IMG/VR virus record: IMGVR_UViG_3300047311_000827
DNA from: a virus
Strand: one strand, 5' to 3'
DNA: 45,878 nt
Within the stretch, counting starts at the first letter, position 1, and each line of letters starts with the position of its first letter. The notes beneath the pieces were generated by a model. The model was not told the DNA's origin. It did not search any database and saw nothing but the letters and a program-made list of their open reading frames with translations. The translations under genes were made by a program, and so were the position numbers. Positions 5,632 through 43,012 of the stretch are shown piece after piece.

Positions 5632-6921
5632 TTACTTGACGTCCACGACCTTGCCGACGTGGATGGGCACGTTGCCCGGTTGACCTGAGACGTTGCAGAC
5701 GATGACCACCATGTCGCGAGGCATCTCGTGCTTCGCGGGCCACGGCGTGATGCAGTCGGTGATCAAGACCATCATGTTGTAGCCCTTCTCCTCGGCGTAC
5801 TTGAAGGCGAGACGCATGTCGGTGCCGCCGCCGCCCTTGAGGAGTTTCTTGATCGCCTCGGCGTCACTCACGGACGCCACCTCCTGGATCTTCGCATCCA
5901 CCGCGAAGCACTCGCATGCGCAGTTGACCGCCTTCAAGATCCCCGCGGCCTCGCTCACCGCGGAGACCAGCAGGCCGGCCATACTGCCCGAGGTGTCGAT
6001 CGCGATCGCGGGCCGCGGTACGCGGGAGATCGTGCTCGGCAACACCGGCGCCTTCGATCCCCACAGGCCTGCGACCGCCCAGCTGCGACGCGACGGCCGA
6101 CGATACGAGAAGTCCGTGGCGCCCTTGACCACGTTGATGCCGTGACGGACGTGCGCGGCGAGTTGCTTGCGCCAGTCGATCGTCGGCGGCTTCAACTGCT
6201 CGTTGGCCCACACGGCCCAACTGCCCGGGACCGTTCCCGGCTGCTGACCACGGATCGCCTCGGCCGTGGTCTTGCGGATCACGCCCTGCTCGATCTCGTT
6301 GTTCTTCGACACGTCGCACGCCTTGCCCTCGATCGGATCGGGGTTCGATGCGCAACCGCCGCAGCGACCGCCCGCTCCGGGCATCGGCTTGCCCAACGTG
6401 ATCTTGACGATGCGGCCGTCCTTCACCGCCTTCTCCGCGCCCTCCAGGAGTGCGAGCACGTAGAACTCCATGGTCTTCCTCTCGGGGAACTTAAACAGCC
6501 GCGGCGTCAACGGCGTGAAGCCGACCGGCCACGCGAATCCCGTGGCCAAGATGTCGTCGTTGATCTCGAGGTCGCCCGCGTAGTTGCACAACGCGTGCAT
6601 GGACTCGATGCCGTACATCGCCATCAACGCGTCCCTCACCTGGTCGTAGCGCGAAGAGATCAACGGCTTGATCGCGTTGCCGCGGGCGTGATGCTCCCGC
6701 TCGTTGTGCTGCAACTCGTGGAGCTGGACCGTGGCCGCGCCGTCCGGCCCGATCGCCTCGGCGAAGTCGGGGTCGTAGAACATGCGCGACCCCTCATCCA
6801 CCGCGAACGTACCGAGACCCTTCGACTCGACGGGCTTGAGATTGTAGACGGCCGTCGTGAACCACGTCAAGATGCTGTGGATCTTGAGACGGCCTGCGGC
6901 GAGGATCGAGAGACCCCTCAT
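5632..6921 (-). CDS. VWA-domain protein with N-terminal HExxH metallopeptidase-like domain (DUF2201-type, MoxR partner)
   Basis: Frame 5632..7053 trimmed to the ATG at 6919-6921 (ATGA overlap). It has HELQH with downstream EREHH, and a MIDAS motif AIDTSGSM. The C-terminus GGGTDMRLAF...MVLITD is typical of VWA. Confidence 0.75.
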   Translation of the reverse strand: MRGLSILAAGRLKIHSILTWFTTAVYNLKPVESKGLGTFAVDEGSRMFYDPDFAEAIGPDGAATVQLHELQHNEREHHARGNAIKPLISSRYDQVRDALMAMYGIESMHALCNYAGDLEINDDILATGFAWPVGFTPLTPRLFKFPERKTMEFYVLALLEGAEKAVKDGRIVKITLGKPMPGAGGRCGGCASNPDPIEGKACDVSKNNEIEQGVIRKTTAEAIRGQQPGTVPGSWAVWANEQLKPPTIDWRKQLAAHVRHGINVVKGATDFSYRRPSRRSWAVAGLWGSKAPVLPSTISRVPRPAIAIDTSGSMAGLLVSAVSEAAGILKAVNCACECFAVDAKIQEVASVSDAEAIKKLLKGGGGTDMRLAFKYAEEKGYNMMVLITDCITPWPAKHEMPRDMVVIVCNVSGQPGNVPIHVGKVVDVK

Positions 6922-7488: not shown

Positions 7489-8649
7489 TTACTTCTTGTC
7501 GAGGGCGATGCCGCTCGCGTTGATCACGGGGTTGACGATCGCCGCGATCTTGACGACGAGCGGGTTGTCGGCCCAGTTGGACGGACGGTTCTTCTCGTTG
7601 ACGAGGATGCGCGTCGCGATCGCGACGAAGTCCTCGCCCATCGGCAGAACCTTGTCGAGCAGAGGCCACGCGGCCGACCAGCGCCGCTTGTACTCGGCGG
7701 TCTTCTTGTTGTCCGCACGGACGGCGGCGCGGCCGATGGCGCCGCACACCGCGAACGTGATGTCGGGACGGTCGGCCTTCGGATTCCACTTCACCTTGCC
7801 GTCCAGGAGGTCGTCGGCGTTGGGGAGGTTCATCTCCTTGCGCGCCTTCTCGAACTGAATGCCGCACGGCTCGCCGATCGTGCCGATGGCGATCGTCGGC
7901 AACAGGTCCTCCATGTCCAGCGCGATCGCGGTCGCGTAGAGGTTGACGAGGTTGCGCCACGACCGGATGGTGGCGTACGCCATGGGGAACCGCCCGCGGA
8001 TCGCGGCCGGCGACTCCTTAGGAAGCGCGCCGAGTTTCCTCGCGTAGCCCTCGACCACGGACTGCACGTGGTCGTACGCGATCTGCCGCTTCTCGGGATC
8101 AACCTTCTCCAACGCGGGCACGTTGTCCTCGCCCGCCAGGTGGGCGAGGAACTCGGTGAGGTCCGGGCCGTCCGTCTGCACGTGCTGCAGGCGGTTGGCT
8201 AGCGGGTACGGCATCTCGGTGCCGTTGGCCGCGGTCTCCGGCGGGTTGCCGATCAACATGTGCCGCGCGGTGTCGGGCAAGTAGTCGTCGTCGATCGCGC
8301 CCTCGTGGACGATGCGCATCGTCGCCGCTTGACACGCGGCCGGGCTCGACGTGATCTCGTCCCAGATGATCAGCGTCGGTTCGCCCTTCATCGCGTCGTG
8401 GAACCACTGCGGCTTGAGGTGCTTGGTGTACTCGTTCTTCTCCGACGGGTACGGCGTACCGCCGATGTCGGTCGGGTCCATCATCGACGTGATCAGAACG
8501 TTCTTCCGCCACTTGTAGCTTTGGGCGAGCGCGTACGCGGCGCTCGTCTTGGCGGTGCCCGGGTCCGACCAAATCATGAGAGGCGGCGCGACATTCTTCG
8601 GCGTCTGCAGGTTCACGTGCATCAGGCGGATCAACTGTTTGAAGTTCAT
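7489..8649 (-). CDS. MoxR/CbbQ-type AAA+ ATPase
   Basis: 386 aa. Walker A-like SDPGTAKTS, Walker B TLIIWDEI, then MRIVHEGAIDD...LIGNPPE. It is adjacent to a VWA partner. Confidence 0.75.
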   Translation of the reverse strand: MNFKQLIRLMHVNLQTPKNVAPPLMIWSDPGTAKTSAAYALAQSYKWRKNVLITSMMDPTDIGGTPYPSEKNEYTKHLKPQWFHDAMKGEPTLIIWDEITSSPAACQAATMRIVHEGAIDDDYLPDTARHMLIGNPPETAANGTEMPYPLANRLQHVQTDGPDLTEFLAHLAGEDNVPALEKVDPEKRQIAYDHVQSVVEGYARKLGALPKESPAAIRGRFPMAYATIRSWRNLVNLYATAIALDMEDLLPTIAIGTIGEPCGIQFEKARKEMNLPNADDLLDGKVKWNPKADRPDITFAVCGAIGRAAVRADNKKTAEYKRRWSAAWPLLDKVLPMGEDFVAIATRILVNEKNRPSNWADNPLVVKIAAIVNPVINASGIALDKK

Positions 8650-10486: not shown

Positions 10487-10914
10487 TGAGTTGCTCCTTG
10501 AGGTTTTTGGTTGAGGGTTTTCTTCGTTTGAAGTTGTTGCGACGAGACGGGCGCTACCCCGTCTCGTTCCTTTCGTCGCGTCGCCTCCATAACGAGTGGC
10601 TACCACCGGCGCGTCCGTCACGACGCTCGCGGTCCTTTGAGTCACTCGATCCGATTCCCGTTGCCGCGGTGCTCCGCGGCGTTCACGGTTAGCGCGCCAA
10701 CGGTTCCGCCCTGGTCGGTGCGGATTGCGTTGACGTCGCTTCGGCTTCGCTATGTCCGTTCGGTCAGCGGCCCCGTGCGCTCGTCGCGGCGGTTGCCGGT
10801 TCACTTGCCCCTCGGTCCGCGGTGCCTTATCAGCCCATCCCGCGCAACCTCGATCTGACCTTCCGTTTTCGTCGGCCCGTTTTGCGGTCCGCCGTGCTCC
10901 GTGCTACGTAGAAG

Positions 10915-10944
10915 AATATACAGCAACTGGTTGTCCTTTGTACA
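10915..10944 (-). promoter_or_regulatory. Candidate sigma70-like leftward promoter (TGTACA-N18-TATATT)
   Basis: Minus-strand read of the AT-rich patch. It would give a leader of about 420 nt before the ATG at 10486. Confidence 0.3.
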
Positions 10945-11043
10945 CCTCCATAGGACCCTAGAGAAGCCATCACGGAAAGGGGCTGGCCCGACGGCCCCCA
11001 AAGAGTTTGTCCCGTGGGCGATCGTGGAGTACCTTCGGCGTCC

Positions 11044-11060
11044 GAGGAGCAACGCTCCTC
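11044..11060 (+). promoter_or_regulatory. Inverted repeat GAGGAGC-AAC-GCTCCTC next to TATAGA, a candidate operator/-10 for the plus-strand island
   Basis: A perfect 7-bp inverted repeat is followed immediately by tatagact. That lies 23 nt upstream of the GTG at 11090, and a CAGGAGG SD follows. Confidence 0.3.
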
Positions 11061-11089
11061 TATAGACTAACCAACCAGGAGGCGAGGCG

Positions 11090-11530
11090 GTGGCCGACCA
11101 CGATCTTCTCAAGCGGATGTTCGAGATGCAGCACGATCTCCAAGCGCGACTCGGGACGCCGATGATCGGCGACGACGCGAGGCGGAAACGCGGCGGCATC
11201 CGGATCAACTCACTCGCGGACCTCAACGAGACCGACCGCGCTGTGATCAAGAAGTGGCACAAGGAGTTCTCGCTCGCGCTGATGATGGAGGCGAGCGAGT
11301 TGATGGACTGGAGTCCGTGGAAGCACTGGAGCTCGCGACTCGGCAACAAGGCGGAGATCACGTTCCTCGGACCCGACCACCTGCGCGAGGTCCACATGGA
11401 GATCGTGGACTGCTTCCACTTCCTGATCGATCTCGCCTTGCTGTACGGCTTCACCGCGGAGGATCTCTTCGAGACGTTCGCCGAGAAGAACGCGATCAAC
11501 CACCGCCGCCAGGACGGAGGCTCGTACTAA
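11090..11530 (+). CDS. All-alpha NTP pyrophosphohydrolase (dimeric dUTPase/dCTPase-MazG type)
   Basis: 146 aa, GTG start with an AGGAGG SD. MQHDLQ...EFSLALMMEASELMDWSPWKHW...EVHMEIVDCFHFLIDLAL...FAEKNAINHRRQ fits the dimeric dUTPase pattern (E..E....WK.W....E.vD..hF.......K...N..Rq). Confidence 0.7.
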   Translation: MADHDLLKRMFEMQHDLQARLGTPMIGDDARRKRGGIRINSLADLNETDRAVIKKWHKEFSLALMMEASELMDWSPWKHWSSRLGNKAEITFLGPDHLREVHMEIVDCFHFLIDLALLYGFTAEDLFETFAEKNAINHRRQDGGSY

Positions 11531-12042
11531 TGATCATCGTGGAGGGAGTCGATCGCGTCGGCAAGTCGAGCTTGGTGAAGGTGCTCGCACGGAACCTTGG
11601 ATTCAAGATCGTTCACTGTGTCGTCCCGCCGGACGGCGAGAGCGTCTTCGACTACCACATGCGCATGATCCAGGACGGCGAGGACGCGATCGTCGATCGC
11701 CTCCACTGGTCGGAGTACGCGTACGGCGAGACGTACCGCCAGGGATGTGGGTACACGAAGAAGCAGTGGCGTCAGCTCGAGGACGAACTCCAGGCGGCGG
11801 AGGCTGGCGTCATCCTTCTCAGCGACTCGCTCAAGCTGATCCGCGAGCGTTGGGGACCGGAGGAGCAGTTCGACGTCGCCGGCCTCGTGCGGCTCGACAG
11901 TTTCTTCTTCGACGTGTTCTTCAACCGCGCGCCGTTCAAGTCCGACCTGCCGCGGCGTCACTACAACTGGCGTGACTTCTTCAACCCCGACGGGTCCGAG
12001 CGCGGCGACGCCTTGAAGACCATGACGAAGTCGCTGTGGTGA
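11530..12042 (+). CDS. P-loop deoxynucleoside monophosphate kinase (thymidylate-kinase-like)
   Basis: The ATG overlaps the upstream TAA (TAATG). MIIVEGVDRVGKSS matches the Tmk P-loop pattern (EG.DG.GKsT). Confidence 0.6.
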   Translation: MIIVEGVDRVGKSSLVKVLARNLGFKIVHCVVPPDGESVFDYHMRMIQDGEDAIVDRLHWSEYAYGETYRQGCGYTKKQWRQLEDELQAAEAGVILLSDSLKLIRERWGPEEQFDVAGLVRLDSFFFDVFFNRAPFKSDLPRRHYNWRDFFNPDGSERGDALKTMTKSLW

Positions 12043-12482
12043 AGGACATGCGGCTCGGGGTTGACGAGTACTTCATGCAGATCGCCCACGCGACCAAGAC
12101 GCGATCGACCTGCCCACGCGCCCAGGTGGGAGCTGTCCTCGTGTCTGACGGTAGGATCGTGAGCGCCGGATTCAACGGCGCGCCTCACGGGGCGCCTCAC
12201 TGCAGCGAGTTCGGGTGCTTCATCGTGGACGACCACTGCCGCGGGGCGGTCCACGCCGAGATCAACGCCCTGCTCCACGCCGAGAAGTACGGCGACACGA
12301 TCTACGTGACCCACACGCCGTGCCTCGAGTGCCTCAAGGCGATCATCAACCACGGCGTCATCCGCATCGTCTACGACCTGGACTACCGTGACGACGCGCG
12401 CGAGCAGTTCATCGGCTGGCTCGCGAACAACCCGACCACGAAGGTCCGGCTGGTGATGCAGCGGATCAGGAGGGAGTCGTGA
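12036..12482 (+). CDS. dCMP deaminase (ComEB/cytidine-deoxycytidylate deaminase zinc family)
   Basis: RSTCPRAQVGAVLV...GFNG...HAEINAL...THTPCLECLKAI. GTG at 12036, or ATG at 12048 (MRLGVDEYFMQIA). Confidence 0.85.
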   Translation: MVKDMRLGVDEYFMQIAHATKTRSTCPRAQVGAVLVSDGRIVSAGFNGAPHGAPHCSEFGCFIVDDHCRGAVHAEINALLHAEKYGDTIYVTHTPCLECLKAIINHGVIRIVYDLDYRDDAREQFIGWLANNPTTKVRLVMQRIRRES

Positions 12483-12976
12483 GCGAGCTGACGAAGAACG
12501 AGGAGGCCGCGATCACCGCCTTCAACGAGGCCACCGGGCACGTCGCTCACAACTACGGCACGCGAGCCTCCATTGCTGTCGGCCGCGAGCTGATTAGGCT
12601 CCGCGCCCGCATCGCGGAGCTGGAAGCCGAGACGAAGCGCGCGCGGGACTACTCCATCCACATGGATGGTCTCCTGCGTGCGGAGGAAGCCCGCATCGCG
12701 GAGCTGGAGCGGGAGCGGGACGCCTTCGGGGCTGGGTTGGACAAGGCCAACCACAAGCGGGCCGTCGCCGAGTCACAGCTCGCCGCTGCGCGGGAGGCGC
12801 TGAGCAACGTTCCGCATGAGGACCACTGTCTAGCGGACGCCGTGACCATCGGCCCCGCCGGCATCCGCGGCATCGTCAAGCGCGGGGGAGACCCCGACGC
12901 ATTCCCGCAGCCCTGCACTTGTGCGTTGGCCGCAGTCCGCGCCGCTCTCGACGGGCTCGGGGAGAAAAAGGCGTGA
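12479..12976 (+). CDS. Hypothetical coiled-coil protein
   Basis: 165 aa. The GTG overlaps the upstream stop (GTGA) and has an AGGAGGGAG SD. Confidence 0.6.
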   Translation: MSELTKNEEAAITAFNEATGHVAHNYGTRASIAVGRELIRLRARIAELEAETKRARDYSIHMDGLLRAEEARIAELERERDAFGAGLDKANHKRAVAESQLAAAREALSNVPHEDHCLADAVTIGPAGIRGIVKRGGDPDAFPQPCTCALAAVRAALDGLGEKKA

Positions 12977-13881
12977 ACTACCTCGGCTCGTTCCCGTCGA
13001 TGGATCAGGCGTACCCCATCCTGGTGAGCCGAGTCGTCAAGGACGGCGAGAGGCTGTCGCCTCGCGGGATGGTGTCGATCGAGATGAGGCCGGCGTCGTT
13101 CACGATCACTGATCCGACACGGGCCGTGTACACCGGCGAGAAGCGCAAGATGAGTTACAGGTTCCTCGCGGTCGAGACGCTCAGCTACCTGGCGGGTCTC
13201 GGCGACGAGAAGACTGCGAAGCTCCTGGTCGCGGTGAACAAGAACCTCGATCCATACCTCAACAAGTTGACGATGAAGTTCGACGGCGCCTACGGACCGC
13301 GGCTCAGGCAGAGTCTCCCGGCGGTGGTCGCGCTCCTCGATCGAGATCGCGACAGCAGGCAGGCGGTCGCCGCGATCTGGTCTCCCGGCATACCGGAGTC
13401 GATCGACGTCCCATGCACCGTGTCGCTGCACTTCTACGTCGCCCACGACAAGCTCGAGATGACGGCCTACATGAGGTCCAACGATCTGATGTGGGGAACG
13501 CCGTACGACGTCGCGGCCTTCTGCATCCTGCAGCAGGCGGTGGCGAAGAGCCTCGGCCTCCAGGTGGGCGCGTATCACCACGTCGCCGACTCGCTCCACG
13601 TCTACCAGGAGCGCGTGCCCGACGTCAAGGACGACAAGACGATCGACCTGCCGTTCGAGCCGTTCAAGAAGATGGTGTGCGAGTCCATGCACCCGAGCTC
13701 GATCATCCGTCACATGATGGATGACTCGGCCGACCTGATCAAGCAGATCTACAGGTTCTTGAACCTCGACAGCATCGACGGTCCACCGAAGACCGCCAGC
13801 CACCTGCGGTTCTTGTTCGGGCAGTCCAAGGACCCGGTGGAGAACGCGTGGGTACGCATGCTCAACGGGAAGTGGCTGTGA
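12973..13881 (+). CDS. Thymidylate-synthase-fold enzyme with Asp at the dUMP-specifying Asn position; predicted dCMP hydroxymethylase/methylase-like
   Basis: Frame 12919..13881 trimmed to the GTG at 12973 (GTGA overlap). It aligns without gaps to E. coli ThyA from Cys146 to residue 181: PCTVSLHFYVAHDKLEMTAYMRSNDLMWGTPYDVAAF against [37 protein letters not shown]. The later motif is SLHVY. Confidence 0.7.
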   Translation: MNYLGSFPSMDQAYPILVSRVVKDGERLSPRGMVSIEMRPASFTITDPTRAVYTGEKRKMSYRFLAVETLSYLAGLGDEKTAKLLVAVNKNLDPYLNKLTMKFDGAYGPRLRQSLPAVVALLDRDRDSRQAVAAIWSPGIPESIDVPCTVSLHFYVAHDKLEMTAYMRSNDLMWGTPYDVAAFCILQQAVAKSLGLQVGAYHHVADSLHVYQERVPDVKDDKTIDLPFEPFKKMVCESMHPSSIIRHMMDDSADLIKQIYRFLNLDSIDGPPKTASHLRFLFGQSKDPVENAWVRMLNGKWL

Positions 13882-14981
13882 GGGCGATCGGTTACTTGGT
13901 CGGCGGCGGCTCGATGTCGCTGGGCGTCGAGGCGGCTGGGTTCGAGATCTCCGGCGTGTGGGAGACGCCCGGTTACTCGAAGAACGCTCAGTCGTGGGAT
14001 CTCAACCGCCCGATGCTCGCGCACTCGGTCCAGGAGGTCCGCGCTGGGTCTCGATTCCTGGGCGGTGACGACGTGGATCTGATCTACGGCAACCCGCCGT
14101 GTGGAGGTCTCTCCAACACGACGGGTGCTCAGCACACGAGTCCCACGAACCTCGTCATGCAGAACTGGTTGGGGATGGTGATCAAGGCGAGGCCTCGCGC
14201 GATCCTGATGGAGAACGCGTTCCAGCTCGCCACCGGGGCCGGCGCCCCGATCCGCGATCTCCTCGGCTCACAGCTCGACGACGCGGGCTACAAGTCGACG
14301 ATCTGGCTGATCGACTCCTGGGAGCTCGGTACGCCTCAAGTCCGGCGGCGCGCGTTCCTGGCCGCGGTCAAGGAGGGCTCGATCGTTGACGTCAAGTGGA
14401 GCGTGCCCTACCAGTTGAGGGAGGAGAACTCGTATCCCAAGGAAGTGTGGGCGGAGACGCGCTTGATCGACGCCGACCCGAGCCCCAGTCCCTTCTACGA
14501 CGTCGCCGGGACCAAGATCACGCAGCACTGGTGGAACAAGACGGGCTATCAGCACAACGAGCTGCTCAAGGAACATGGCGATCGGATCACGCTCGGCAAG
14601 TTCCTCACTCCTCACGAGCTCAAGATGCTCGAGGCGCGCGCGGCGGCCGGAATCAAGTCAGCGAAGCGAGAGATCGAGAAGCGGATGCCATTGCTCTGGC
14701 CTGAGGTGCCGCGCGCGTTCTCGAAGCCCAAGCAGTTCAAGGTGATCAGGCGGCTCAGGGCCGAGGCCCCGAGCTTCGTGGTGCTGTCGGAGTTCAACCT
14801 GGCTCACCCGACCTTGAACCGCCTCCTCACGATGCGCGAGATGGCGCGGCTCATGGGCTACCCGGACGACTGGGTGTTCCACGTCCTCCACCCGCGGCTG
14901 GTCGCGCAGGGGGTGCCCGTGGCGAACGCGAGATGGGCGGCGTCAAGGCTCATGGAAGCCTTGACGGCCGCCCACTCGTGA
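13878..14981 (+). CDS. DNA (cytosine-5) methyltransferase
   Basis: GTG at 13878 (GTGA overlap). Motifs: I YLVGGGSMSLG; IV YGNPPCGGLS; VI LMENAF; VIII TPQVRRRAF; IX RLLTMREMARLMGYPDDW; X AQGVPV. Confidence 0.85.
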   Translation: MRAIGYLVGGGSMSLGVEAAGFEISGVWETPGYSKNAQSWDLNRPMLAHSVQEVRAGSRFLGGDDVDLIYGNPPCGGLSNTTGAQHTSPTNLVMQNWLGMVIKARPRAILMENAFQLATGAGAPIRDLLGSQLDDAGYKSTIWLIDSWELGTPQVRRRAFLAAVKEGSIVDVKWSVPYQLREENSYPKEVWAETRLIDADPSPSPFYDVAGTKITQHWWNKTGYQHNELLKEHGDRITLGKFLTPHELKMLEARAAAGIKSAKREIEKRMPLLWPEVPRAFSKPKQFKVIRRLRAEAPSFVVLSEFNLAHPTLNRLLTMREMARLMGYPDDWVFHVLHPRLVAQGVPVANARWAASRLMEALTAAHS

Positions 14982-16389: not shown

Positions 16390-17154
16390 TCACTCAGAAT
16401 CGGGTCCGTCTGACTCGTCCTCCGGCGTGCCGGAGCCAATCCCGAAGCGGCCGAGGAGCGTCGCGGCAACGGTCCCGGCGATCGCCGACTGGAGGAGGCC
16501 GGACGCGCCCTTGGCCATCGTGTGGTTCATGGACGCGACCACCTGCTCGTGGAGCATCGCCGGCAGCACCTCGTTGGTGGTGTGGATCGCTACCGAGTAG
16601 AAGTGGAGACGGCGCTGGATGTCCTCGGACGCCACGAACCGATACAGGGTCTTGATCGCGCCGCCCTCCCTGATGAAGACGCCGCGGTTCTTGATCACGA
16701 ACACTGGTCCCATGGGCGACGTGCCGCGAAGTTGCGATCCCTGGCGGTGGAGGTTCAGTCGGCTGAGGTACATCCCTGGAGGGACGCTCTCCCTCTGTGA
16801 CGGCCTGGCGCCGCCCACGATCGGGATCGCGATGTTGGCGCCCAACTCCGGATGCTGGCTGCCGCCCTCCTCGAACTGCGAGAGCCTCAACCTCTTCTTC
16901 TGCCCGATGCGGATCATCGCCCACATGCGTCCGACCGTCGGCCTGGCGAACGGCTTGATGATCGCGATCTGACGGAGGATGAACTTCGACTTCCTCACGG
17001 TGACGTCTTCCTGGATCTTGAGGCGCTGCCTCTCCTGTATGAGTTTCATCGTCGCGTTGATCGAGTTGGAGATGGCATACGCCTTCTGGCGCTCGCTGAG
17101 GAGTAGGGCTTCCAGGACGAAGTTGTCCTTGAGTTCCGCCTCCATGGTGACCAT
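16390..17154 (-). CDS. Hypothetical protein (254 aa), possible virion/morphogenesis protein
   Basis: The ATG overlaps the upstream stop (TGATG). It lies between the tail genes and the lysis genes. No firm motif. Confidence 0.6.
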   Translation of the reverse strand: MVTMEAELKDNFVLEALLLSERQKAYAISNSINATMKLIQERQRLKIQEDVTVRKSKFILRQIAIIKPFARPTVGRMWAMIRIGQKKRLRLSQFEEGGSQHPELGANIAIPIVGGARPSQRESVPPGMYLSRLNLHRQGSQLRGTSPMGPVFVIKNRGVFIREGGAIKTLYRFVASEDIQRRLHFYSVAIHTTNEVLPAMLHEQVVASMNHTMAKGASGLLQSAIAGTVAATLLGRFGIGSGTPEDESDGPDSE

Positions 17155-17588
17155 CAGACGGGGAGGAGGCCGTCCTGCCCCATGTACAGCTTGTCGGTCT
17201 CATTCTCGTACACGACCCACGCATCGACCGTGACGCTGGGAACGTCCGGTCCAGCCACTGCGGCGACGAGACGCAGTGTGATATACGGCCAGCCCATGTA
17301 TGGAACACCGGTCGCCACGGTGATGACCACTGGCATCGGGTTCGTGAGGCTGAGTACGTGACCGCTCACGCCGTCGCCGAGAAGGTTGGTACCTGCCGGG
17401 TTGAAGAAACCGCCGCTCCCCGTGCCAGATCCAATCCACGTGCACGGCTGCGGCGCACCGCCGCCGTTGCCGTACACCAGGAAGTGAATGGCCTTTGCAC
17501 CCAGACACGGGATGTACTTCGTGAACAGCTGGTTGTTGGTCACGAGAGTCTGGTTGTCGATGACCTTCGGGTATTTGAACGTCTTCAC
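17154..17588 (-). CDS. Small tail-module protein, paralog B of a tandem pair
   Basis: 144 aa, GTG start with a GGAGGTG SD. About 60% identical by eye to the 17601-18047 product. Confidence 0.65.
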   Translation of the reverse strand: MKTFKYPKVIDNQTLVTNNQLFTKYIPCLGAKAIHFLVYGNGGGAPQPCTWIGSGTGSGGFFNPAGTNLLGDGVSGHVLSLTNPMPVVITVATGVPYMGWPYITLRLVAAVAGPDVPSVTVDAWVVYENETDKLYMGQDGLLPV

Positions 17589-17600
17589 CGCGCACCTCCG

Positions 17601-18047
17601 TCAGGCCGGCAGCAGTCCGTCCTGACCGTTGACCAGCTTGTCAGTCTCGTTCTCATAGATCACATAGGCATCGACAGTGACGTTGGTGACGTCGTTGGCT
17701 GGAGACGCGCCGGCGTTGCCGATCAGTCTCAAGATCAGGTAAGGCCACCCAAGATAGAAGAGACTGGGGGTGGGGTAGAACGTGACTGACATCGGGTTCG
17801 TCGGAGTGAGGGCGTGGCCGTTCACGCCGTCGGCGGTCGCCAATCCAGCGGGTGCGAAGAATCCTCCGCTAGGAATCCCTGATCCGATGGTGTTGATGGC
17901 CTGAGGCGCGCCGCCTACGGCAGCTCCGACAACGAGGAACACAATCGCCTTGGCTCCCTGGCACGGGATGTACTTCGTGTTGAGTGCGCCGCCAGCGGCA
18001 ACGAGCGTCTGGTTGTCGATGACCTTCGGGTACTTGAATACCTTCAC
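17601..18047 (-). CDS. Small tail-module protein, paralog A of a tandem pair
   Basis: 148 aa, GTG start. It shares MK(V/T)FKYPKVIDNQTLV...TKYIPC.GAKAI.FLV...GGAPQ...GWPY..LRL...TVDA.V.YENETDKL..GQDGLLP with its neighbour. Confidence 0.65.
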   Translation of the reverse strand: MKVFKYPKVIDNQTLVAAGGALNTKYIPCQGAKAIVFLVVGAAVGGAPQAINTIGSGIPSGGFFAPAGLATADGVNGHALTPTNPMSVTFYPTPSLFYLGWPYLILRLIGNAGASPANDVTNVTVDAYVIYENETDKLVNGQDGLLPA

Positions 18048-18054
18048 GGTGTCC

Positions 18055-21000
18055 TCACTCCGCTGAGATCGCGAGGATCTCGGTTGAGTAGTTCGGGCCG
18101 AGACCCTGATCGACCTGCAAGATCCTCATGGTCTTCCCGACCCACGATCCGTCAGAACCATACCTCGGGAACGCCACCTTCGGGTTGATCGTCGCGTCGA
18201 ACTGGAACGTCATCATGCGATGCGCGTCCGGCATCCTGAACGTGTTGAACCTCACGATTGTTCGAGGCTTCGCTGAGAAGTCGAAGAGGCGATTGCGGAA
18301 CTCGACCGCCGTCACCTCGTCGCGGATGAAGTCCGCCACGACCTGATCCTCGTCTCGCGGCCCGTAGTAGCTGACGAATGTTGCGGCGTCGGTCTCCCTG
18401 GTCCCGCGGGTGTATCCACCGGTGTTGTTGTTCACGAATCCGGAATCCGTCTTGTCGTACCCCATCGTCGTGGCGCAGTTGGTCGCAGCGTTGGTGCCGC
18501 TCGACCACTTGTTGTTGAAGATGCTGGACGAGTTGACGCTGAACCAGAAGCGGTCTCGGTAGCGAGGGATCGCCGCAGTGATCGATGCCGCGTAGGTGCC
18601 GCCGCCTGGAGAGATGCTCAGGTTGCCCATGGCCTTGTTCGCAGACGTCCCAGTGCCAGGCGGTACTCCGGCGTCTAGACCGCACATCTCCATCGTGTCG
18701 CCGGCGATCGTCCATGTGAACAGGTTCACGGAGTGGTCGTAGGAGCATCCGATCGTGACGCCGACTGGGACCACGGTATTCATCGCCCGCGCACATTCAG
18801 CAGCTAGACTCTCTGCCGTGTAGTCGCCTGGGTTCAAAGTCGCAGTGTGGTTCGTCGGCCCAGTGGCCCGTATGAACGCGATGACGTCGTTGTAGCCCGC
18901 CTTGATCGAGAAACCCCAGCCGACGCTGAGTTCGGTGCCGCCAGAGGCGACGCGCATCTTCCCCTGGACCTCCGACGCCAAGTCGATCGCCTTGGTATAC
19001 GTGGTTGCAGTCAGAGTGAGGTGCTGGTCCGTGGCAGCGAAGTTGTAGTCGAGACGATCGTTGACGCCGCCGACGATCTTGAGGAGCTGGTCGCGGGTCG
19101 TGGGACTCGTGAAGCCCTGACTGCTGCCGCTGTCATTGACGAAGGCCTCGAACAGCGTCTTACCCTTGAAGTTGTCGTAACCATACTTGATGCGGATCGC
19201 GTGGCGCACGTCTACGGTGCTGGTCTCCTCGGCGGTGAAGGACCCGGTGTCGTCCCACCCGATCGCGATGTCATACTCGGATATTGCGCCGACCTTCCAG
19301 GGGTACGCAAGCCACTTGTTCGAGAGGCGATCGAGATACACGCAGAGACCGCCCTGGAGCGCGATCGCCTGGGCCGCCCTCTGGACCGTCGTGCGATCTC
19401 CGAGCCACGCTGCGAGCTTGATGTCACTCGCCTGGCCGTTGCGGAGAGTGGATCTCACGTCAACGAAGCTGCCGGAGACGCCCGCGCCCGTCTGGAAGTC
19501 GGAACCGGCGACGCCACCGTACGTGACCATCAGGTGCCGGAGTATGTCCGGCGGCTTCTCGATCAGCGAGGCCGATACGCCGGTGAACGTTCCAGGGAAG
19601 TCGTCGGGTTGCCCCTGGATGTTTCCGTAGAACTGACCCTCGAGCTTCAGTGTCGGTTCAACGATGATGTCAACTTCCTTGAGATAGTTCCTGCTGCGCC
19701 GTGACTTGTGGCCCGACTGAACGACGTAAGTCTTGGTCAGCGATCCAGGAGTCACCGTGCTCCTCTGTGGTCTGTACTTCACCACGAGGGCCACCCAGTA
19801 GATGCTAGCCTTGTTCGCCGCGCCGGCGACGAAGTCGATGCGCACATCCCAAGCGTGCGTGGTGCCGCCTGATCCGAAGTCCCACGCCTGAGTCGGCCCC
19901 CAGTCCGCCGTGGCCCAGGTCCCGGTCTGCACAGCGGGCGTCGTCGCGGTGGCGACCCAGTTCGCAGTCGTAGTGCCGAAGCCCACCGCAGGATTGCGCG
20001 ACTGAATCCTGAGGTTGTTCGCGTTGCCGGCATTCCCTGACCAGGCGACGTAGTACTGCACGGACTGGACCTGACCCAGGTTGTTCGCGTTCGGCAAGAT
20101 CAGCTGCAGTATGCCGTGGGTAGTGCTCTGGTCGAGGGACGCGAAGCTCGTCTCATCGAAAGGGTCCATGGCCCTCTTAGGATTGGTGGCGGTGTTCTCG
20201 CTCGCCCTCACGTCCATCGGGATGATCGCGGCGTAGGCGACCGTGTTCTCGTCGGTGATCTCGAGCTTCGACTCGCCCACGGCCAGAGTCGCAGTGATCC
20301 CGGTGACGTCCAGAGGACTGAGGAGGTTGCCGCCAACAATGAACGCCGTCCTGCCGTTCGCTCTGCTCAGAATGTCCGTACACAGGTGGCAGGCGGCGAC
20401 GAGTTTCACTTTCGCGGCGCCGACGCCAGAGTCCACCAGGATCAGCGGCACCGCTCCCAGACCGGCACCAGAGTCTTCCTGGAGAGACTTGTTAGCGAGG
20501 GCCGAGGTCCAGGGCGTGCGCATGTTCAATGCGTTGAAGTTGCCATACGCGATCGGGATGGGCTGACCCTGCGATCCGTCTGGCGAGTCGGGGTAGCTCA
20601 CCTTGTCGACGACCGTCGGCGGCACCAGTTTGTTCCAGGCCATATCCTGGAGCAGGTAGAGGCTCACACCAGACACCGACATCTCGACCGGCCTGGATAC
20701 GCGTCCCTTGAACACCTGGAGAGCATCGCTGAACGAGGTCAGCGTCGCCTCCCACAGGTAGATCGTGACCACCGCGTTCTGGAAGAGGAAGCTGGAGAGG
20801 AGATCGTGGATCGTGCCGCCAGTCGAACTCTGGCTCGCGTCGCGAACCTTCGCGAACCTGATCGTGGCGTCCACTGGGTCCATACCCGTGCCCAGAAGAT
20901 CGACGGACTCCCTGACCGTCTCGCAGGTCACGCCCTCCTGCCACGTATTGCCGTCTGGCGTGTGGGTCTCGTGCGTCGCATATCTCAGGGTCCTGGAACT

Positions 21001-21081
21001 CGGTACCGTGAGATCGATCTGAACGAGCGTGACCCGAGACGCCGTGTAGCTGCGCCACGCGTTCTTGAATGCCGTAGTCAC
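18055..21081 (-). CDS. Large tail tip / host-specificity protein (Tal/J-like)
   Basis: 1008 aa, GTG start overlapping the upstream stop (GTGA). It is the second gene after the tape measure. GQPIPIAYGNF resembles the J/Phage-tail_3 motif. Confidence 0.6.
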   Translation of the reverse strand: MTTAFKNAWRSYTASRVTLVQIDLTVPSSRTLRYATHETHTPDGNTWQEGVTCETVRESVDLLGTGMDPVDATIRFAKVRDASQSSTGGTIHDLLSSFLFQNAVVTIYLWEATLTSFSDALQVFKGRVSRPVEMSVSGVSLYLLQDMAWNKLVPPTVVDKVSYPDSPDGSQGQPIPIAYGNFNALNMRTPWTSALANKSLQEDSGAGLGAVPLILVDSGVGAAKVKLVAACHLCTDILSRANGRTAFIVGGNLLSPLDVTGITATLAVGESKLEITDENTVAYAAIIPMDVRASENTATNPKRAMDPFDETSFASLDQSTTHGILQLILPNANNLGQVQSVQYYVAWSGNAGNANNLRIQSRNPAVGFGTTTANWVATATTPAVQTGTWATADWGPTQAWDFGSGGTTHAWDVRIDFVAGAANKASIYWVALVVKYRPQRSTVTPGSLTKTYVVQSGHKSRRSRNYLKEVDIIVEPTLKLEGQFYGNIQGQPDDFPGTFTGVSASLIEKPPDILRHLMVTYGGVAGSDFQTGAGVSGSFVDVRSTLRNGQASDIKLAAWLGDRTTVQRAAQAIALQGGLCVYLDRLSNKWLAYPWKVGAISEYDIAIGWDDTGSFTAEETSTVDVRHAIRIKYGYDNFKGKTLFEAFVNDSGSSQGFTSPTTRDQLLKIVGGVNDRLDYNFAATDQHLTLTATTYTKAIDLASEVQGKMRVASGGTELSVGWGFSIKAGYNDVIAFIRATGPTNHTATLNPGDYTAESLAAECARAMNTVVPVGVTIGCSYDHSVNLFTWTIAGDTMEMCGLDAGVPPGTGTSANKAMGNLSISPGGGTYAASITAAIPRYRDRFWFSVNSSSIFNNKWSSGTNAATNCATTMGYDKTDSGFVNNNTGGYTRGTRETDAATFVSYYGPRDEDQVVADFIRDEVTAVEFRNRLFDFSAKPRTIVRFNTFRMPDAHRMMTFQFDATINPKVAFPRYGSDGSWVGKTMRILQVDQGLGPNYSTEILAISAE

Positions 21082-21881
21082 GGCAACCTCACGAGCGTGA
21101 CATCGATGTCCCAGGTGTTGGAGAAGCCCTTGGTCTCCGTGTACTGACCGTCTTTCAAGAAGACTTCATAGATGTGGTCTTCCCAGTCCAGGAACGCGAT
21201 CGAGCCGCGCTGGAGGAACGCCTGGACCCAGGCATCCCTGACCGTCGAGGACGCGCTCCTCCAGGGATGCGTGAACATCATGCCGTCGTCTCCCAGGATC
21301 GAGATGACGGTCACCCCTGACGGCAGTGGGATCTCCAGGCGGTTCTTCATCGGCGTGCGCGTGCCGCCAGGCGAGTGGATGCCCCCCAGGTCGGTCATCG
21401 ATCCCACGAAGAACTTGCCCAGGGAGAAGACCACGTTCGCGAGAGACGGGCTGATCGTGAACCTCACCGATCTGACGTTGGCCACCGGCGAGAACGTGAC
21501 GAAGTCATCCCTGAACGAGTTGAGCCCGAGATTCCCCATCGATCCCTGGAACGTCCAGGTGCCGCCTGGAGTGTAGGCTCCGGTCTGAGTCGAGAAGTCG
21601 AGGAAGAAGCCGCCGACGCTCGACAACCTGGACCCGAAAGCCGCAGCCGTGTCGATCGTGAACGCCGCGCCGAGATCGAAGTCGACGTTGTATTGAGTTG
21701 GCGTCGAGAGCGGACTCGACTTCCACAGCGTGTAGCGATCCGGCGTCAGGAGGTTCGCCATGACGTACGGCGCGGTCTCGATCAACGCCGGGGCGCCGCC
21801 GCCGGTGCCGTTCTTGAGCAGCACGCCCGGATTCCGGTCCAGGGTGAGGCGGTTGAGGAGCAGCAGTCTGGTGTTCGACAT
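21078..21881 (-). CDS. Distal tail protein (Dit)-like
   Basis: 267 aa, immediately downstream of the tape measure (TGATG overlap). The call rests on position and size only. Confidence 0.45.
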   Translation of the reverse strand: MSNTRLLLLNRLTLDRNPGVLLKNGTGGGAPALIETAPYVMANLLTPDRYTLWKSSPLSTPTQYNVDFDLGAAFTIDTAAAFGSRLSSVGGFFLDFSTQTGAYTPGGTWTFQGSMGNLGLNSFRDDFVTFSPVANVRSVRFTISPSLANVVFSLGKFFVGSMTDLGGIHSPGGTRTPMKNRLEIPLPSGVTVISILGDDGMMFTHPWRSASSTVRDAWVQAFLQRGSIAFLDWEDHIYEVFLKDGQYTETKGFSNTWDIDVTLVRLP

Positions 21882-23440
21882 CAGGACACCGCCGCGAGTT
21901 CACGAATGCGCGAGTTCGCCGACCGCATCTGTCCGGTGGGCGAGAGCATGGACTGGATCAGATCCTTGGCGCTGATCGTCTGGATGATGAACGTGTCGCC
22001 ACCGCTAGGACTGGTCGGAGCAGAGCTCACGATGTTTCCACCCGCGAGTTTCGAGCCGACGCCGCCGACGAACGGCGCGAGCGGTCCGGTGAACGGCGCG
22101 ATGGCCAGCAAACCGAGACCGATGCCCATCTGCGCCGCGGATTGGATCACGTCGTCCAGGATGGACTTCATGAGGTGGTGGAACGCGGAGCCGATGCTCT
22201 CGGTGCCCAGAATCACGTTGGAGATCGTCGCTGAGATGCTGCTCGCCACGGCCTGCTCGGTCTGCTTCAAGGCCTCGGCGACGGCTTTACCCCTGATCGC
22301 CATCTCGTCCATGGCGGGATCGAACTTCTCCTTGATCACCTTGGTGGCCTCGAGGGTCGACATGTACACCTTGTCCCATGCCTTCGCGGCGTCCTCTGCG
22401 GCGTTCTTGCCGCCCTCGCCACGGAGCTTCATCTTGTCTGCGTCTGCGGCTCCCTTGATGTTGGGCAGGAGCGCGAAAATGCCGTGAAGATCGGGGAACA
22501 GATCCTCAGGCGGCGGCATCGTCGTCTTGGCCTTGGTCCCAGACGTCGTGGGGAATCCCTGGTCGGTCAACTGAACGCCGTGGGCGCCGGCCATGACCCG
22601 AGTCATCAGATCGCTGAATGCCTTGGCTGGATTGGCGACGATCTCAGCGATCGACTGGAAGACGTTGACGGTGGAGTCCCAGAACTTCTTCAGCGCTTCC
22701 TCCAGTTGCCTGATGATGTCGAGTAGGCCAGTGAGGCTCTGCAGGATCACGGTCGTCGGACCGACTGCGATCTGCGAGAACAACAGACCCACTCCGGCCC
22801 AGGCGGCGTGCATGTCCTTGACGCTAGCGGTCAGGGCGGCCGTCTTGTTCACTGCGTCGTTGCCGATTATGGAGTTGAATATCCTGGCGCGGTCGGCGGT
22901 AGCGTCGAGGCCGTCCGCGATGTCCTTTGCGGAGCCGATCAACTCTCCGGCGCCGCGCCCCATCAAGGTCATCGCGTCGTTGGTTGCGTCGAACTGGTTG
23001 GTCGCGTCGGCGACGTGCTTGATCAGATCGGTGAACGCCGAGGCCGTGTCCGTGGTGTTCAGGTGGAGCTTCTCGACCAGCGGGTTGTGCAGGGCGATGT
23101 TTCTGTTGAGCTGCTGGAGTGAAATGTTCAGGCCTGAGGCGCTGCCGCCGCTGTCGATGATCGCCTGCTTGAGGAGTTGGTACTGCTGGATACTGAGGCC
23201 GGTGCGCCGGGACGAGTTCTCGAGCTGGGTCACGATCTCTTCGTAGTGGACCCCGGCGACGGCCAAGGACGTGGCGATCCCAGCTACCGCCACGGCGACA
23301 GCTCCGAGCGGGCCGGCCGAGGCCACAGTCTCGGCGAGACCCTGGTTCATGCCCGTGATCTGCGAGGCGATCTTCTGGATCACCGCGCTAGACTCATCCT
23401 TGGCTCGGATGATGAACTCTACCGCTCCACCGTCTGCCAT
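21881..23440 (-). CDS. Tail tape measure protein
   Basis: 519 aa, Ala/Gly-rich and helical, with hydrophobic segments (GPLGAVAVAVAGIATSLAVAG near the N-terminus, MGIGLGLLAIAPFTGPLAPFVGG near the C-terminus). It follows the chaperone pair. Confidence 0.75.
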   Translation of the reverse strand: MADGGAVEFIIRAKDESSAVIQKIASQITGMNQGLAETVASAGPLGAVAVAVAGIATSLAVAGVHYEEIVTQLENSSRRTGLSIQQYQLLKQAIIDSGGSASGLNISLQQLNRNIALHNPLVEKLHLNTTDTASAFTDLIKHVADATNQFDATNDAMTLMGRGAGELIGSAKDIADGLDATADRARIFNSIIGNDAVNKTAALTASVKDMHAAWAGVGLLFSQIAVGPTTVILQSLTGLLDIIRQLEEALKKFWDSTVNVFQSIAEIVANPAKAFSDLMTRVMAGAHGVQLTDQGFPTTSGTKAKTTMPPPEDLFPDLHGIFALLPNIKGAADADKMKLRGEGGKNAAEDAAKAWDKVYMSTLEATKVIKEKFDPAMDEMAIRGKAVAEALKQTEQAVASSISATISNVILGTESIGSAFHHLMKSILDDVIQSAAQMGIGLGLLAIAPFTGPLAPFVGGVGSKLAGGNIVSSAPTSPSGGDTFIIQTISAKDLIQSMLSPTGQMRSANSRIRELAAVS

Positions 23441-23727
23441 CAGCCCACCTCGTGCAGGATCATCTTCAGGGTAGCGATCACTCGAGCGATGCCCAAGTCG
23501 TCTCCCTCGCTGCAGGAACTCATCGCCAACCTGAACATCGTGTCAACGTAGATGTCGTGAGCCCTCATCACCGTGAAGTCGAATGCGAGCTGCCCAGCCT
23601 CACTGCACTTGAGCCTCATCAGGCTTGCCGGCGACTTCCGTCTGGCCCGCGCCATTCTCCACAGCTCCCACGCCGCCAGGGCTCCCTTCTCCCCCTCCAT
23701 CATGAAAGGAAGCTTCCTTGGCGGCAC
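23440..23727 (-). CDS. Tail assembly chaperone T-frame ORF (frameshift extension or independently initiated at ATG 23703)
   Basis: It overlaps the 3' 128 nt of the upstream ORF in the +1 frame. The track start is a GTG with no usable SD spacing. The ATG at 23701-23703 has AAGGAAG 9 nt upstream. Confidence 0.5.
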   Translation of the reverse strand: MPPRKLPFMMEGEKGALAAWELWRMARARRKSPASLMRLKCSEAGQLAFDFTVMRAHDIYVDTMFRLAMSSCSEGDDLGIARVIATLKMILHEVG

Positions 23728-24127
23728 CTCCGACGCCGCTCAGTTCAAGGACGGCGTTGACCAGCGACAACCTCTCCTCGAGCCTGATGAAGCGGGCATC
23801 GATGCTGCCCTGGACCTTGTGTGCGTCGTCGAAGTGGAACGCCGGCCGGATCGTCGGGTTGCCCTCGGCGTCGGCGAGCGCCGTGCCGGCGTGGATCAAC
23901 TCCGGAGTCATCGCCTCGGCGATCCTCATGACTTCCATCGGGTCTCGTTCCCTCAGTTTGTCGCCGTCGGCACTCCTGAGTCCAGGCATGCCGTACATCT
24001 TGGCCAGCGTCAACTCGTCGATCGGCTCGCAGTAGATCTTCACGGGCTCGCCCGACTTCGTCTTGAGATACTGGAGCGTGACGATCCTGGTGGGGATCGC
24101 CACGTCCTCAGCCTTGGTGACGTCCAT
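23600..24127 (-). CDS. Tail assembly chaperone (gpG-like)
   Basis: 175 aa, acidic, between the tube and tape measure genes, with a low-complexity Gly-rich tail. Confidence 0.6.
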   Translation of the reverse strand: MDVTKAEDVAIPTRIVTLQYLKTKSGEPVKIYCEPIDELTLAKMYGMPGLRSADGDKLRERDPMEVMRIAEAMTPELIHAGTALADAEGNPTIRPAFHFDDAHKVQGSIDARFIRLEERLSLVNAVLELSGVGGAAKEASFHDGGGEGSPGGVGAVENGAGQTEVAGKPDEAQVQ

Positions 24128-24154
24128 TCTTTGAACCCGCCTTTCAGATTGGAC

Positions 24155-25402: not shown

Positions 25403-25413
25403 CGCGGACCTCC

Positions 25414-42912: not shown

Positions 42913-42930
42913 CTGTCCTCCGTTGACTTG

Positions 42931-43012
42931 GCGGCACCGGCTGCTCGCGAAGGGGTTAGCGAGCCCGAGGTCCTCGGAACCGTCAAGTACGAGGTTCGGT
43001 CGCCGGTGCCGC
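42931..43012. other. 82-nt intergenic element with an 11-bp closing stem and three internal hairpins (cloverleaf-like)
   Basis: gcggcaccggc (42931-42941) pairs with gccggtgccgc (43002-43012). Inner arms: gctcgc/gcgagc, ccgagg/cctcgg and gaacc/ggttc. Confidence 0.5.

Follow-up and report, generated by a model that had tools for sequence, protein, structure and literature searches.

A plus-strand operon in a phage with lambda-type head genes, predicted to convert the deoxycytidine pool before replication

In phage T4, ordinary cytosine is replaced by 5-hydroxymethylcytosine before replication, and four of the activities are the gp56 dCTPase/dUTPase, the gp42 dCMP hydroxymethylase, the gp1 dNMP kinase and the cd dCMP deaminase, encoded by scattered genes. 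Related hydroxymethylases act on other substrates: SPO1 gp29 on dUMP, and Streptomyces MilA on CMP. The 5-methyl-dC module of Pamexvirus (XP12, PaMx74, AXL1) consists of an NTP pyrophosphatase, a ThyA homolog, a dCMP deaminase and DHFR, and all 5mC phages of this genus pair the ThyA-type enzyme with DHFR (PMC9206674). In cytosine-modified viral contigs found by MetaGPA, thymidylate synthase, PRA-PH and dCMP deaminase domains co-occur, with diagnostic residues at positions 147 and 177 (PMC8670742; 10.1101/2024.12.05.627091), and a cassette of pyrophosphatase, kinase, deaminase and thymidylate synthase with Asp177 is a published signature of such contigs (10.1101/2024.12.05.627091; PMC8670742). 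Among ThyA-fold enzymes, Asp at position 177 marks cytosine specificity, while position 143 is acidic in hydroxymethylases and hydrophobic in methylating enzymes (PMC13326640, PMC8670742). The position-143 rule is described as a correlation only, the 5mC-type enzyme of PaMx74 carrying Asn rather than a bulky hydrophobic residue. In 5-hydroxy-dCMP synthases Asp169 is replaced by Asn (PMC13326640). Ribose specificity of MilA is due to Ala176 and Lys133', and a C-terminal active-site lid is a feature of thymidylate synthase (PMC5175136).

The DNA analyzed here (the window, 45,878 nucleotides, IMG/VR record IMGVR_UViG_3300047311_000827) is a complete circular phage assembly of 45.75 kb with a terminal overlap of 127 bp. 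Terminase, portal and capsid are of lambda type; a Pfam search of the genome gave no matches to tail proteins. The codon-usage gene call contains 59 genes, only six of which are on the plus strand, all at 11090-14981 and each sharing 1-7 nt with its neighbor (Table 1). The same six genes occur in independent Logan gene calls for this phage, in agreement with the first-pass annotation, which had described six overlapping genes as the only plus-strand block. Clear positive AT skew is confined, within the whole window, to 11-15 kb. The sequence AGGAGG lies 8 nt 5' of the GTG of the first gene, with the Shine-Dalgarno site at ~11068-11073. The preceding non-coding gap is presumed to be a divergent promoter region; a promoter search of it found a single weak sigma-70-like match, on the minus strand.

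Table 1. Features of the plus-strand island and the adjoining gap
Feature	Coordinates	Strand	Length	Evidence
Non-coding gap between leftward early operon and plus-strand island	10487..11089	.	603 bp	Gene call and sequence
ORF1, all-alpha NTP pyrophosphatase, dimeric-dUTPase/MazG type	11090..11530	+	146 aa	PF08761 dUTPase_2, E 1.3e-13
ORF2, P-loop NMP-kinase-fold protein	11530..12042	+	170 aa	GKS P-loop; invariant DRLHWSEYAYG motif
ORF3, dCMP-deaminase-family zinc deaminase	12036..12482	+	148 aa (144 aa from alternative start 12048)	PF00383 dCMP_cyt_deam_1, E 5e-22
ORF4, lineage-specific protein, no assigned function	12479..12976	+	165 aa	Good coding potential
ORF5, ThyA-fold pyrimidine C5 transferase	12973..13881	+	302 aa	PF00303 Thymidylat_synt, E 1.8e-20
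ORF6, C5 DNA cytosine methyltransferase	13878..14981	+	367 aa (377 aa from alternative start 13848)	PF00145 DNA_methylase, E 4e-28

ORF5 scores 73.6 bits against PF00303 (cut-off 24.3), and the residues C148, R168, S169, D171, Y107 and E68, which correspond to the catalytic Cys146, Arg166, Ser167, Asp169, Tyr94 and Glu58 of the ThyA fold, are invariant in the alignment. In E. coli ThyA numbering, its active-site residues are D143, C146, T147, R166, S167, D169 and D177, so that positions 143/147/169/177 read Asp/Thr/Asp/Asp, and the signature at 143/146/147/166/169/177, DCTRDD, is identical to that of T4 gp42. D145, C148, T149, D171 and D179 (ORF5 numbering) are all invariant among 25 homologs. 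The substitution of Asp for the dUMP-specifying Asn, reported earlier from the letters of the sequence, is borne out by the alignment of 'PYDVA' in ORF5 with E. coli 'PFNIA' (N177), T4 gp42 'RNDYA' (D179) and MilA.

Membership of the gp42 clade by overall sequence was rejected: BLAST scores of ORF5 were 115 bits to SPO1 gp29, 76 to MilA, 67 to ThyA, 53 to the PaMx74 enzyme and 28 to gp42, and the family HMM gave 182 bits to gp29, 86 to ThyA and 47 to gp42. MilA is the top PDB match by sequence (2.6e-20) and came first in a Foldseek search with the AF2 model (pLDDT 89; E 1e-18, TM 0.76, compared with ~1e-13 for ThyA); this likeness takes in the helical C-terminal domain, and many thymidylate synthase structures were matched with a probability of 1.00. 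The hydroxymethylases SPO1 gp29 and MilA are the closest characterized relatives, having Asp143 and the extended C-terminal domain in common with ORF5. However, gp29 carries Asn147 and Asn177 (uracil) where ORF5 has Asp177 (cytosine), and the ribose residues of MilA are missing from ORF5. Ser169 and Arg129 occupy these positions; therefore, a MilA-type CMP hydroxymethylase was dismissed and a deoxyribonucleotide substrate is expected. Judging by its active site, ORF5 is predicted to be a dCMP hydroxymethylase (5-hydroxymethyl-dCMP synthase), which probably works like gp42 yet sits in a different clade.

Other activities of the fold agree less well with ORF5. A canonical thymidylate synthase is ruled out, as N177, H147 and L143 are replaced by Asp, Thr and Asp, and the lid is absent, the C-terminus forming a helical domain in which the last 27 residues of ThyA have no counterpart. 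A 5-hydroxy-dCMP synthase of the RB69 gp48 or DLP3 gp80 type was rejected because D169 is kept (Asp171 in ORF5, 'RSND'). An ordinary dTMP supply, with dUTPase, thymidylate kinase, dCMP deaminase and thymidylate synthase next to an unrelated orphan methyltransferase, is what Pfam and PHROG names alone would suggest, and homologs are publicly annotated as 'thymidylate synthase' and 'thymidylate kinase'; with the four ThyA features lacking, ThyX coexisting with an ORF5-type enzyme in the loci of relatives, and the methyltransferase linkage given below, this explanation is hardly credible. The first-pass annotation had preferred cytosine modification to dTMP supply, a preference that these data uphold, together with the gp42 signature, the gp56 homology (below) and the published cassette signature.

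The methylating route of XP12 deserves more attention. The island resembles the Pamexvirus module in combining pyrophosphatase, ThyA-fold (Asp177) and deaminase genes in one operon of a GC-rich tailed phage. Under this reading ORF5 would convert dCMP to 5-methyl-dCMP, a 5mC-selective deaminase would draw dTTP from the methylated pool, and the methyltransferase would top up residual cytosines, both routes leading to 5-methylcytosine, which would make chemical sense of the conserved C5 methyltransferase. For deaminases encoded beside ThyA-fold(Asp) genes a preference for 5mC has been shown, and 5mdCMP was the product of five out of seven of their partner enzymes (10.1101/2024.12.05.627091). We nevertheless regard this route as unlikely. 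First, the invariant Asp at 143 is that of all verified hydroxymethylases, whereas the PaMx74 enzyme, with N143 and P147, ends in a ThyA-like segment missing from ORF5, and is a more distant relative than gp29 or MilA. Second, DHFR is absent from the window and from ~150 related loci, while Pamexvirus encodes DHFR and its own DNA polymerase and lacks the kinase and the C5 methyltransferase; the PaMx74 pyrophosphatase belongs to another family, with no similarity to ORF1. Third, in a relative with a 49%-identical ORF5 enzyme, the gene shares a cluster with those for UDP-galactopyranose mutase and a glycosyltransferase, an arrangement that implies a base carrying a hydroxyl group. 5-Hydroxymethyl-dC is thus a more likely product than 5-methyl-dC.

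The deaminase ORF3 (78 bits to PF00383, cut-off 25) has the zinc motifs HAE and PCxxC ('HAEINAL' and 'PCLEC') of dCMP deaminases. It is 38% identical to PaMx74 cd, a point in favor of the methylating route, and 32% identical to T4 cd; on the other hand, it is nearer to the bacterial dCMP deaminase of S. mutans (2hvv, 3e-26) than to the PBCV-1 enzyme (5e-7), the structure nearest the 5mC-selective deaminase of the mSCD-B5 type. Alternatively, ORF3 could act on 5-hydroxymethyl-dCMP or its triphosphate, so that both 5hmdC and 5hmdU would be made and incorporated. Co-expression of seven cassette-type deaminases with T4 gp42 and gp1 led to 5hmdU in the DNA of E. coli, the deaminase gene sits between the kinase and ThyA-fold genes, and the nearest phage relatives of ORF5 are dUMP hydroxymethylases of 5hmU phages. 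Yet the best match of ORF3 is a canonical dCMP deaminase, and genes for 5hmU tailoring (DNA kinase, aminotransferase) were not recognized in the phage, which makes such a double replacement quite improbable.

The pyrophosphatase ORF1 matches phrog_173 (NTP pyrophosphohydrolase, 8e-19) and T4 gp56 (33% identity over 72 aa, E 1e-13), and possesses the metal-binding motifs E67-A-S-E and E104-I-V-D; PF08761, the ExxE...ExxD motifs and the gp56 similarity place it in the all-alpha dimeric dUTPase-dCTPase family. It is predicted to be a dCTPase/dUTPase turning dCTP into dCMP. For ORF2, a phrog_761 match (9e-11) and a weak Thymidylate_kin P-loop match (5e-5, under the Pfam cut-off) were obtained. By sequence and structure (model pLDDT 83) it is most similar to YorR of the SPbeta prophage (2axp/3kb2), a protein to which no substrate has been assigned; the modeled fold is that of a generic P-loop NMP kinase. 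Homology to T4 gp1 was ruled out (BLASTP E 0.17, not significant). In most related loci an ORF2 homolog adjoins the ThyA-fold gene, and the kinase is predicted to phosphorylate modified dCMP to the diphosphate. ORF4 has no Pfam or PHROG family, occurs only in contigs of the same phage and is missing from the related L007 and L008 cassettes, so it lies outside the conserved cassette; of the coiled coil proposed earlier, just two ARIAELE repeats are visible by eye.

The predicted C5 DNA methyltransferase ORF6 (99 bits to PF00145, cut-off 22) has all motifs of its family; motifs I (GxG), II (Glu), IV (PPC), VI (ENA), VIII (QVRRR), IX and X are kept across 19 homologs. Variants are PCQ to PCG, GGP to GNP and GN to QG, and the 'GNPPCGG' of motif IV assigns ORF6 to a "GNPPC[GS]G" subfamily. 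Among viral contigs, ThyA-fold(Asp) genes adjoin 14 of 30 loci of this subfamily as against 0 of 41 canonical "GGPPC" methyltransferases (P 6e-7). The linkage is non-random, and no published description of it was found in the searchable literature. Linkage to a C5 methyltransferase is absent from the MetaGPA reports as well, and the island further differs from those contigs in having a dUTPase_2 pyrophosphatase instead of PRA-PH.

Profile matches confirm the product types of the first-pass annotation (PF08761, a P-loop NMP-kinase fold with weak Thymidylate_kin, PF00383, PF00303 and PF00145). Its proposal of a T4-type enzyme set is supported, with refinements: the comparison with ThyA, gp42, XP12-type enzymes, gp56 and gp1 supports gp56 homology, cd identity and the gp42 active-site residues, but not the gp42 clade, XP12-type features other than Asp177 or gp1 homology, and ORF5 groups with gp29 and MilA. 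The same four activities as in T4 are predicted, here from one overlapping operon with an added C5 methyltransferase, in a phage that has no glucosyltransferase, td or frd of its own and, by profile searches of the complete genome, no DNA polymerase.

We assign a probability of about 0.6 to a T4-like pool conversion by the six-gene operon, in which ordinary cytosine would be replaced by 5-hydroxymethylcytosine before replication. The order of the genes, their domains, the residues of the active site, the fold and the conservation of the cassette are observed; substrates, products and extent of replacement we infer. Expressed early, the gp56-like pyrophosphatase would hydrolyze dCTP (and dUTP) to the monophosphate, and ORF5 would convert dCMP, methylene-tetrahydrofolate and water to 5-hydroxymethyl-dCMP, which the P-loop kinase and then host NDP kinase would raise to the di- and triphosphate. 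The host replisome would put 5-hydroxymethyl-dC in the place of dC, as a phage without a DNA polymerase must rely on that of the host to incorporate the modified nucleotide. Like T4 cd, the deaminase would turn some of the dCMP into dUMP as a substrate for the thymidylate synthase of the host, or may act on modified nucleotides. The C5 methyltransferase would act on DNA afterwards, most simply on cytosines left unreplaced.

Several observations speak against 5-hydroxymethylcytosine: the exact clade of ORF5 has no member with a verified product; the kinase lacks gp1 similarity; and, with no glycosyltransferase or other tailoring enzyme recognized in the phage, restriction of the McrBC type would be able to attack bare 5hmC DNA. 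Depletion of GGATCC in the genome (1 observed vs 16.2 expected; Poisson P ~2e-6) is likewise unexpected for restriction-immune DNA. The first-pass annotation had suggested wholesale modification, an extent not readable from sequence, and this avoidance hints that protection of the phage DNA is incomplete rather than absolute. Moreover, complete 5hmC would leave the C5 methyltransferase without a substrate, yet its linkage is conserved, and this points to incomplete replacement or to another product. Genes for the pyrophosphatase, kinase, deaminase and ThyA-fold(Asp) enzyme are found together in dozens of viral loci, and, since the cassette signature has already been published, the island is a new instance of it in a new phage lineage.

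The genome is a complete or circular assembly with 45,751 bp of unique sequence, since its first 127 bases (1-127) are identical to its last 127 (45752-45878); given this exact terminal overlap, gene absences hold for the whole genome. Only six of the 59 genes called from the genome's own codon usage lie on the plus strand. The first-pass annotation had described six overlapping genes at 11090-14981 as the sole plus-strand block, and the gene call, a clearly positive AT skew confined to this block, and public gene calls made independently for the same phage all agree with it. Pfam and PHROG also return the products that had been assigned from the sequence. Each gene of the island overlaps the next by 1-7 nt, the first is preceded by a strong ribosome-binding site, and the island is set apart from the leftward early genes by a non-coding gap of 603 bp. 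The repeats in this gap look like chance occurrences, and Rfam, tRNA and promoter/terminator scans revealed no RNA element above background.

Genes of the plus-strand island and the source of their assignment
Product	Coordinates	Strand	Assignment
dUTPase_2-type all-alpha pyrophosphatase	11090-11530	+	Pfam, PHROG
P-loop protein, weak thymidylate-kinase N-terminus	11530-12042	+	Pfam, PHROG
dCMP deaminase	12036-12482	+	Pfam, PHROG
orphan protein (ORF4)	12479-12976	+	
ThyA-fold enzyme	12973-13881	+	Pfam, PHROG
C5 DNA methyltransferase	13878-14981	+	Pfam, PHROG

The phage possesses a gpA-type terminase (45% identical to that of AcaML1) and a protease-capsid fusion, and its portal is of the lambda type. 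When the island was compared by megablast with 50,697 phage records, no match emerged, and the phage is, judging by sequence comparison, only distantly related to known phages. No recognisable polymerase, DHFR, ThyX, integrase or glycosyltransferase was found among all 59 proteins, and the phage shows no host-DNA-degrading genes. A scan of bacterial genomes did not identify the host, all genomic relatives being at most 37% identical and mostly of the uracil type.

The ThyA-fold enzyme was aligned with E. coli ThyA, T4 gp42, SPO1 gp29 (a dUMP hydroxymethylase), the enzyme of the 5mC phage PaMx74, and 70-plus viral homologues. In E. coli numbering it carries Asp143, Cys146, Thr147, Arg166, Ser167, Asp169 and Asp177. 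The Asn-to-Asp replacement read earlier from the sequence is thus present in the alignment, and Asp177 and the other signature residues are invariant among 25 homologues of 29-53% identity. Replacement of Asn177 by Asp changes specificity from uracil to cytosine (PMC8670742); position 143 is acidic in hydroxymethylases and hydrophobic in methyl-forming enzymes (PMC13326640, PMC8670742), and flavin-dependent 5-hydroxy-dCMP synthases are marked by an Asp169-to-Asn change (PMC13326640). The active-site signature D-C-T-R-D-D (positions 143/146/147/166/169/177) is exactly that of T4 gp42. Positions 143/147/177, which are D, T and D in the phage enzyme, are instead L, H and N in E. coli ThyA, D, N and N in gp29, and N, P and D in the PaMx74 enzyme.

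The solved structure that matches best in sequence is that of the CMP hydroxymethylase MilA. MilA is also the best structural match of the confident AlphaFold model (pLDDT 89), with E 1e-18 and TM 0.76 over ~310 columns, helical C-terminal domain included, compared with ~1e-13 over ~240 columns for ThyA structures. Ribose is selected in MilA by Ala176 and Lys133' (PMC5175136), and the phage enzyme has a deoxyribose-type Ser and Arg at these positions. The best prediction from alignment and model is a dCMP hydroxymethylase of the gp29/MilA clade.

The parallel drawn earlier with the T4 enzymes stood in part. The gp42 signature is present, and the pyrophosphatase, which has both ExxE/ExxD metal motifs, is 33% identical to T4 gp56 over its C-terminal half (E 1e-13); a test for homology to the pyrophosphatase of PaMx74 was negative. 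By overall similarity, however, the ThyA-fold enzyme is not a gp42 relative, scoring only 28 BLAST bits against gp42 versus 115 against gp29 (ThyA, 67; PaMx74, 53). The kinase was likewise rejected as a T4 gp1 homologue, no similarity being detected. Both its sequence and its structure come nearest to YorR, a protein of the SPbeta prophage, with generic nucleoside and NMP kinases next, and we infer its role from its fold and from the fact that its gene constantly adjoins that of the ThyA-fold enzyme. The deaminase has an intact zinc site; its closest match is an ordinary bacterial dCMP deaminase (3e-26), and identity is 32% with T4 cd and 38% with PaMx74 cd. ORF4 was found in this phage only and is missing from the cassette of its relatives.

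The order dUTPase_2, kinase, deaminase, ThyA-fold enzyme, C5 methyltransferase recurs in two diverged relatives (L007 and L008), whose ThyA-fold enzymes are 52% and 43% identical to that of the phage. A scan of IMG/VR yielded 67 loci, ~50 of them with the D-C-T-R-D-D signature, most of which have the pyrophosphatase, kinase and deaminase within 8 kb; at loci with a uracil-type signature all three are absent nearby. Some relatives also encode ThyX, so that the ThyA-fold enzyme is not the dTMP source there. A plain dTMP supply module, the ordinary role for such a set of genes, is very improbable.

Methylation consumes folate reducing equivalents, and hydroxymethylation does not. A three-seed HMM search with filters off found no DHFR in the window or in ~150 related loci; in all 5mC Pamexviruses a DHFR gene adjoins that of the enzyme (PMC9206674). 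That the pathway makes 5-methyl-dC, as in these phages, is unlikely. In one relative, genes for a glycosyltransferase and UDP-galactopyranose mutase adjoin those of the ThyA-fold enzyme and methyltransferase, a neighbourhood which fits a hydroxyl-bearing base. As far as sequence goes, the gp42 signature, the cassette and the lack of DHFR support the T4-like cytosine modification first proposed. We put the probability of some pre-replicative pathway to C5-modified dC at about 0.85, and 5-hydroxymethyl-dC would be its favoured product, with somewhat less confidence; we infer both products and extent of replacement throughout. Modified-cytosine phage contigs have an experimentally grounded signature, in which an Asp177 thymidylate-synthase homologue is co-located with an NTP pyrophosphatase and a gene of the dCMP deaminase family (PMC8670742; 10.1101/2024.12.05.627091), and the core finding is a fresh example of this published signature in an otherwise unknown phage.

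Variants of these loci were seen elsewhere. In the 53-kb phage contig L214 (1689-10295) the order is dUTPase_2, Methyltransf_21, UDP-galactopyranose mutase, two unknowns, an Asp177 ThyA-fold enzyme, C5 methyltransferase, GT4 glycosyltransferase, and a capsule-synthesis-like protein. The cluster probably encodes a pathway for cytosine hypermodification of the galactofuranosyl type. Three phages that themselves encode PolIII-alpha (L082, L083 and L215; 50-67 kb) share a conserved block of dUTPase_2, a ~401-aa unknown, a ~330-aa kinase-like protein (weak UDG hit), C5 methyltransferase, deaminase, and an Asp177 ThyA-fold enzyme; ThyX lies upstream in L082 and L083, and a sugar epimerase downstream in L083. 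In bacterial genomes and MAGs (L167-L210; for example, CP085323.1 of Acidobacteriaceae ZG23-2, at ~2.38 Mb), 33 of 49 ThyA-fold genes have the gp29 signature D143/N147/N177. A homologue of the phage P-loop kinase occurs within 10 kb of 26 of these 33, the pyrophosphatase and methyltransferase being absent; such loci may represent a 5-hydroxymethyl-dUMP system of soil bacteria, either cellular or carried by prophages.

The methyltransferase has the full set of C5 methyltransferase motifs, with GNPPCGG as motif IV rather than the usual GGPPCQ. Its homologues (39-56% identical) repeatedly share contigs with Asp177 ThyA-fold genes, as deduced from contigs of matching length and verified on four of them. 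The methyltransferase alignment retrieved 79 IMG/VR loci (L085-L157 among them), and a D-C-T-R-D-D enzyme lay within 10 kb at 14 of 30 loci with the GNPPC[GS]G motif, but at none of 41 with canonical GGPPC (Fisher P 6e-7); some loci are near-duplicates, and the independent lineages are nearer ten. No description of this coupling was found in the searchable literature.

Complete replacement by 5hmC would leave a C5 methyltransferase with no substrate to methylate. First, replacement may plausibly be partial, as the phage relies on the host polymerase and no host-DNA-degrading genes are seen in it. Second, the ThyA-fold clade could possibly make 5-methyl-dCMP after all. Third, the methyltransferase could possibly act in another way on modified DNA. 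We tentatively propose that the GNPPC[GS]G subfamily serves the cassette as a dedicated partner; virion DNA would then bear 5hmC of pre-replicative origin and, at missed sites, 5mC added after replication. More radically, the methyltransferase could act on 5hmC DNA to produce an undescribed hypermodification.

Restriction-site avoidance was used as an indirect test of modification. Under a maximal-order Markov model, 16.2 GGATCC and 6.8 GGGCCC sites are expected in the whole window, which contains one GGATCC and no GGGCCC; GATC and CGCG show no depletion. The pattern suggests that BamHI-like restriction was a selective force in the past despite the predicted base modification. The strong avoidance of GGATCC fits incomplete protection and counts mildly against full protection.

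Several other genes were recorded. The only candidate regulator found is a small protein (1132-1401, minus strand) whose DNA-binding domain is a winged helix of the LexA type. The early operon encodes an AAA_3 (MoxR-like) ATPase and a DUF2201 metallopeptidase/VWA protein (5632-6921 and 7489-8649, minus), a pair also conserved in L008. About 15 presumed tail/late proteins at 16390-28962 (minus) have no Pfam match, bar one weak beta-helix hit, and a tape-measure protein is not evident among them. Just upstream of the packaging genes, also on the minus strand, are a SAM methyltransferase (Methyltransf_23, 39361-40113), a SLOG/YspA/DprA-like protein (40412-40789), a 746-aa beta-helix protein (40786-43026), and a 459-aa protein without matches (43037-44416).

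Whole-base replacement shields phage DNA from restriction enzymes and CRISPR-type nucleases, and is also a source of enzymes for epigenetic sequencing. That coupling to a single methyltransferase subfamily recurs suggests two-layer cytosine protection or a new enzymatic step. If confirmed, the pathway would mean that a polymerase-less 45-kb phage can attempt base replacement using the host replisome and five genes of its own, a minimal, portable version of the T4 pathway.
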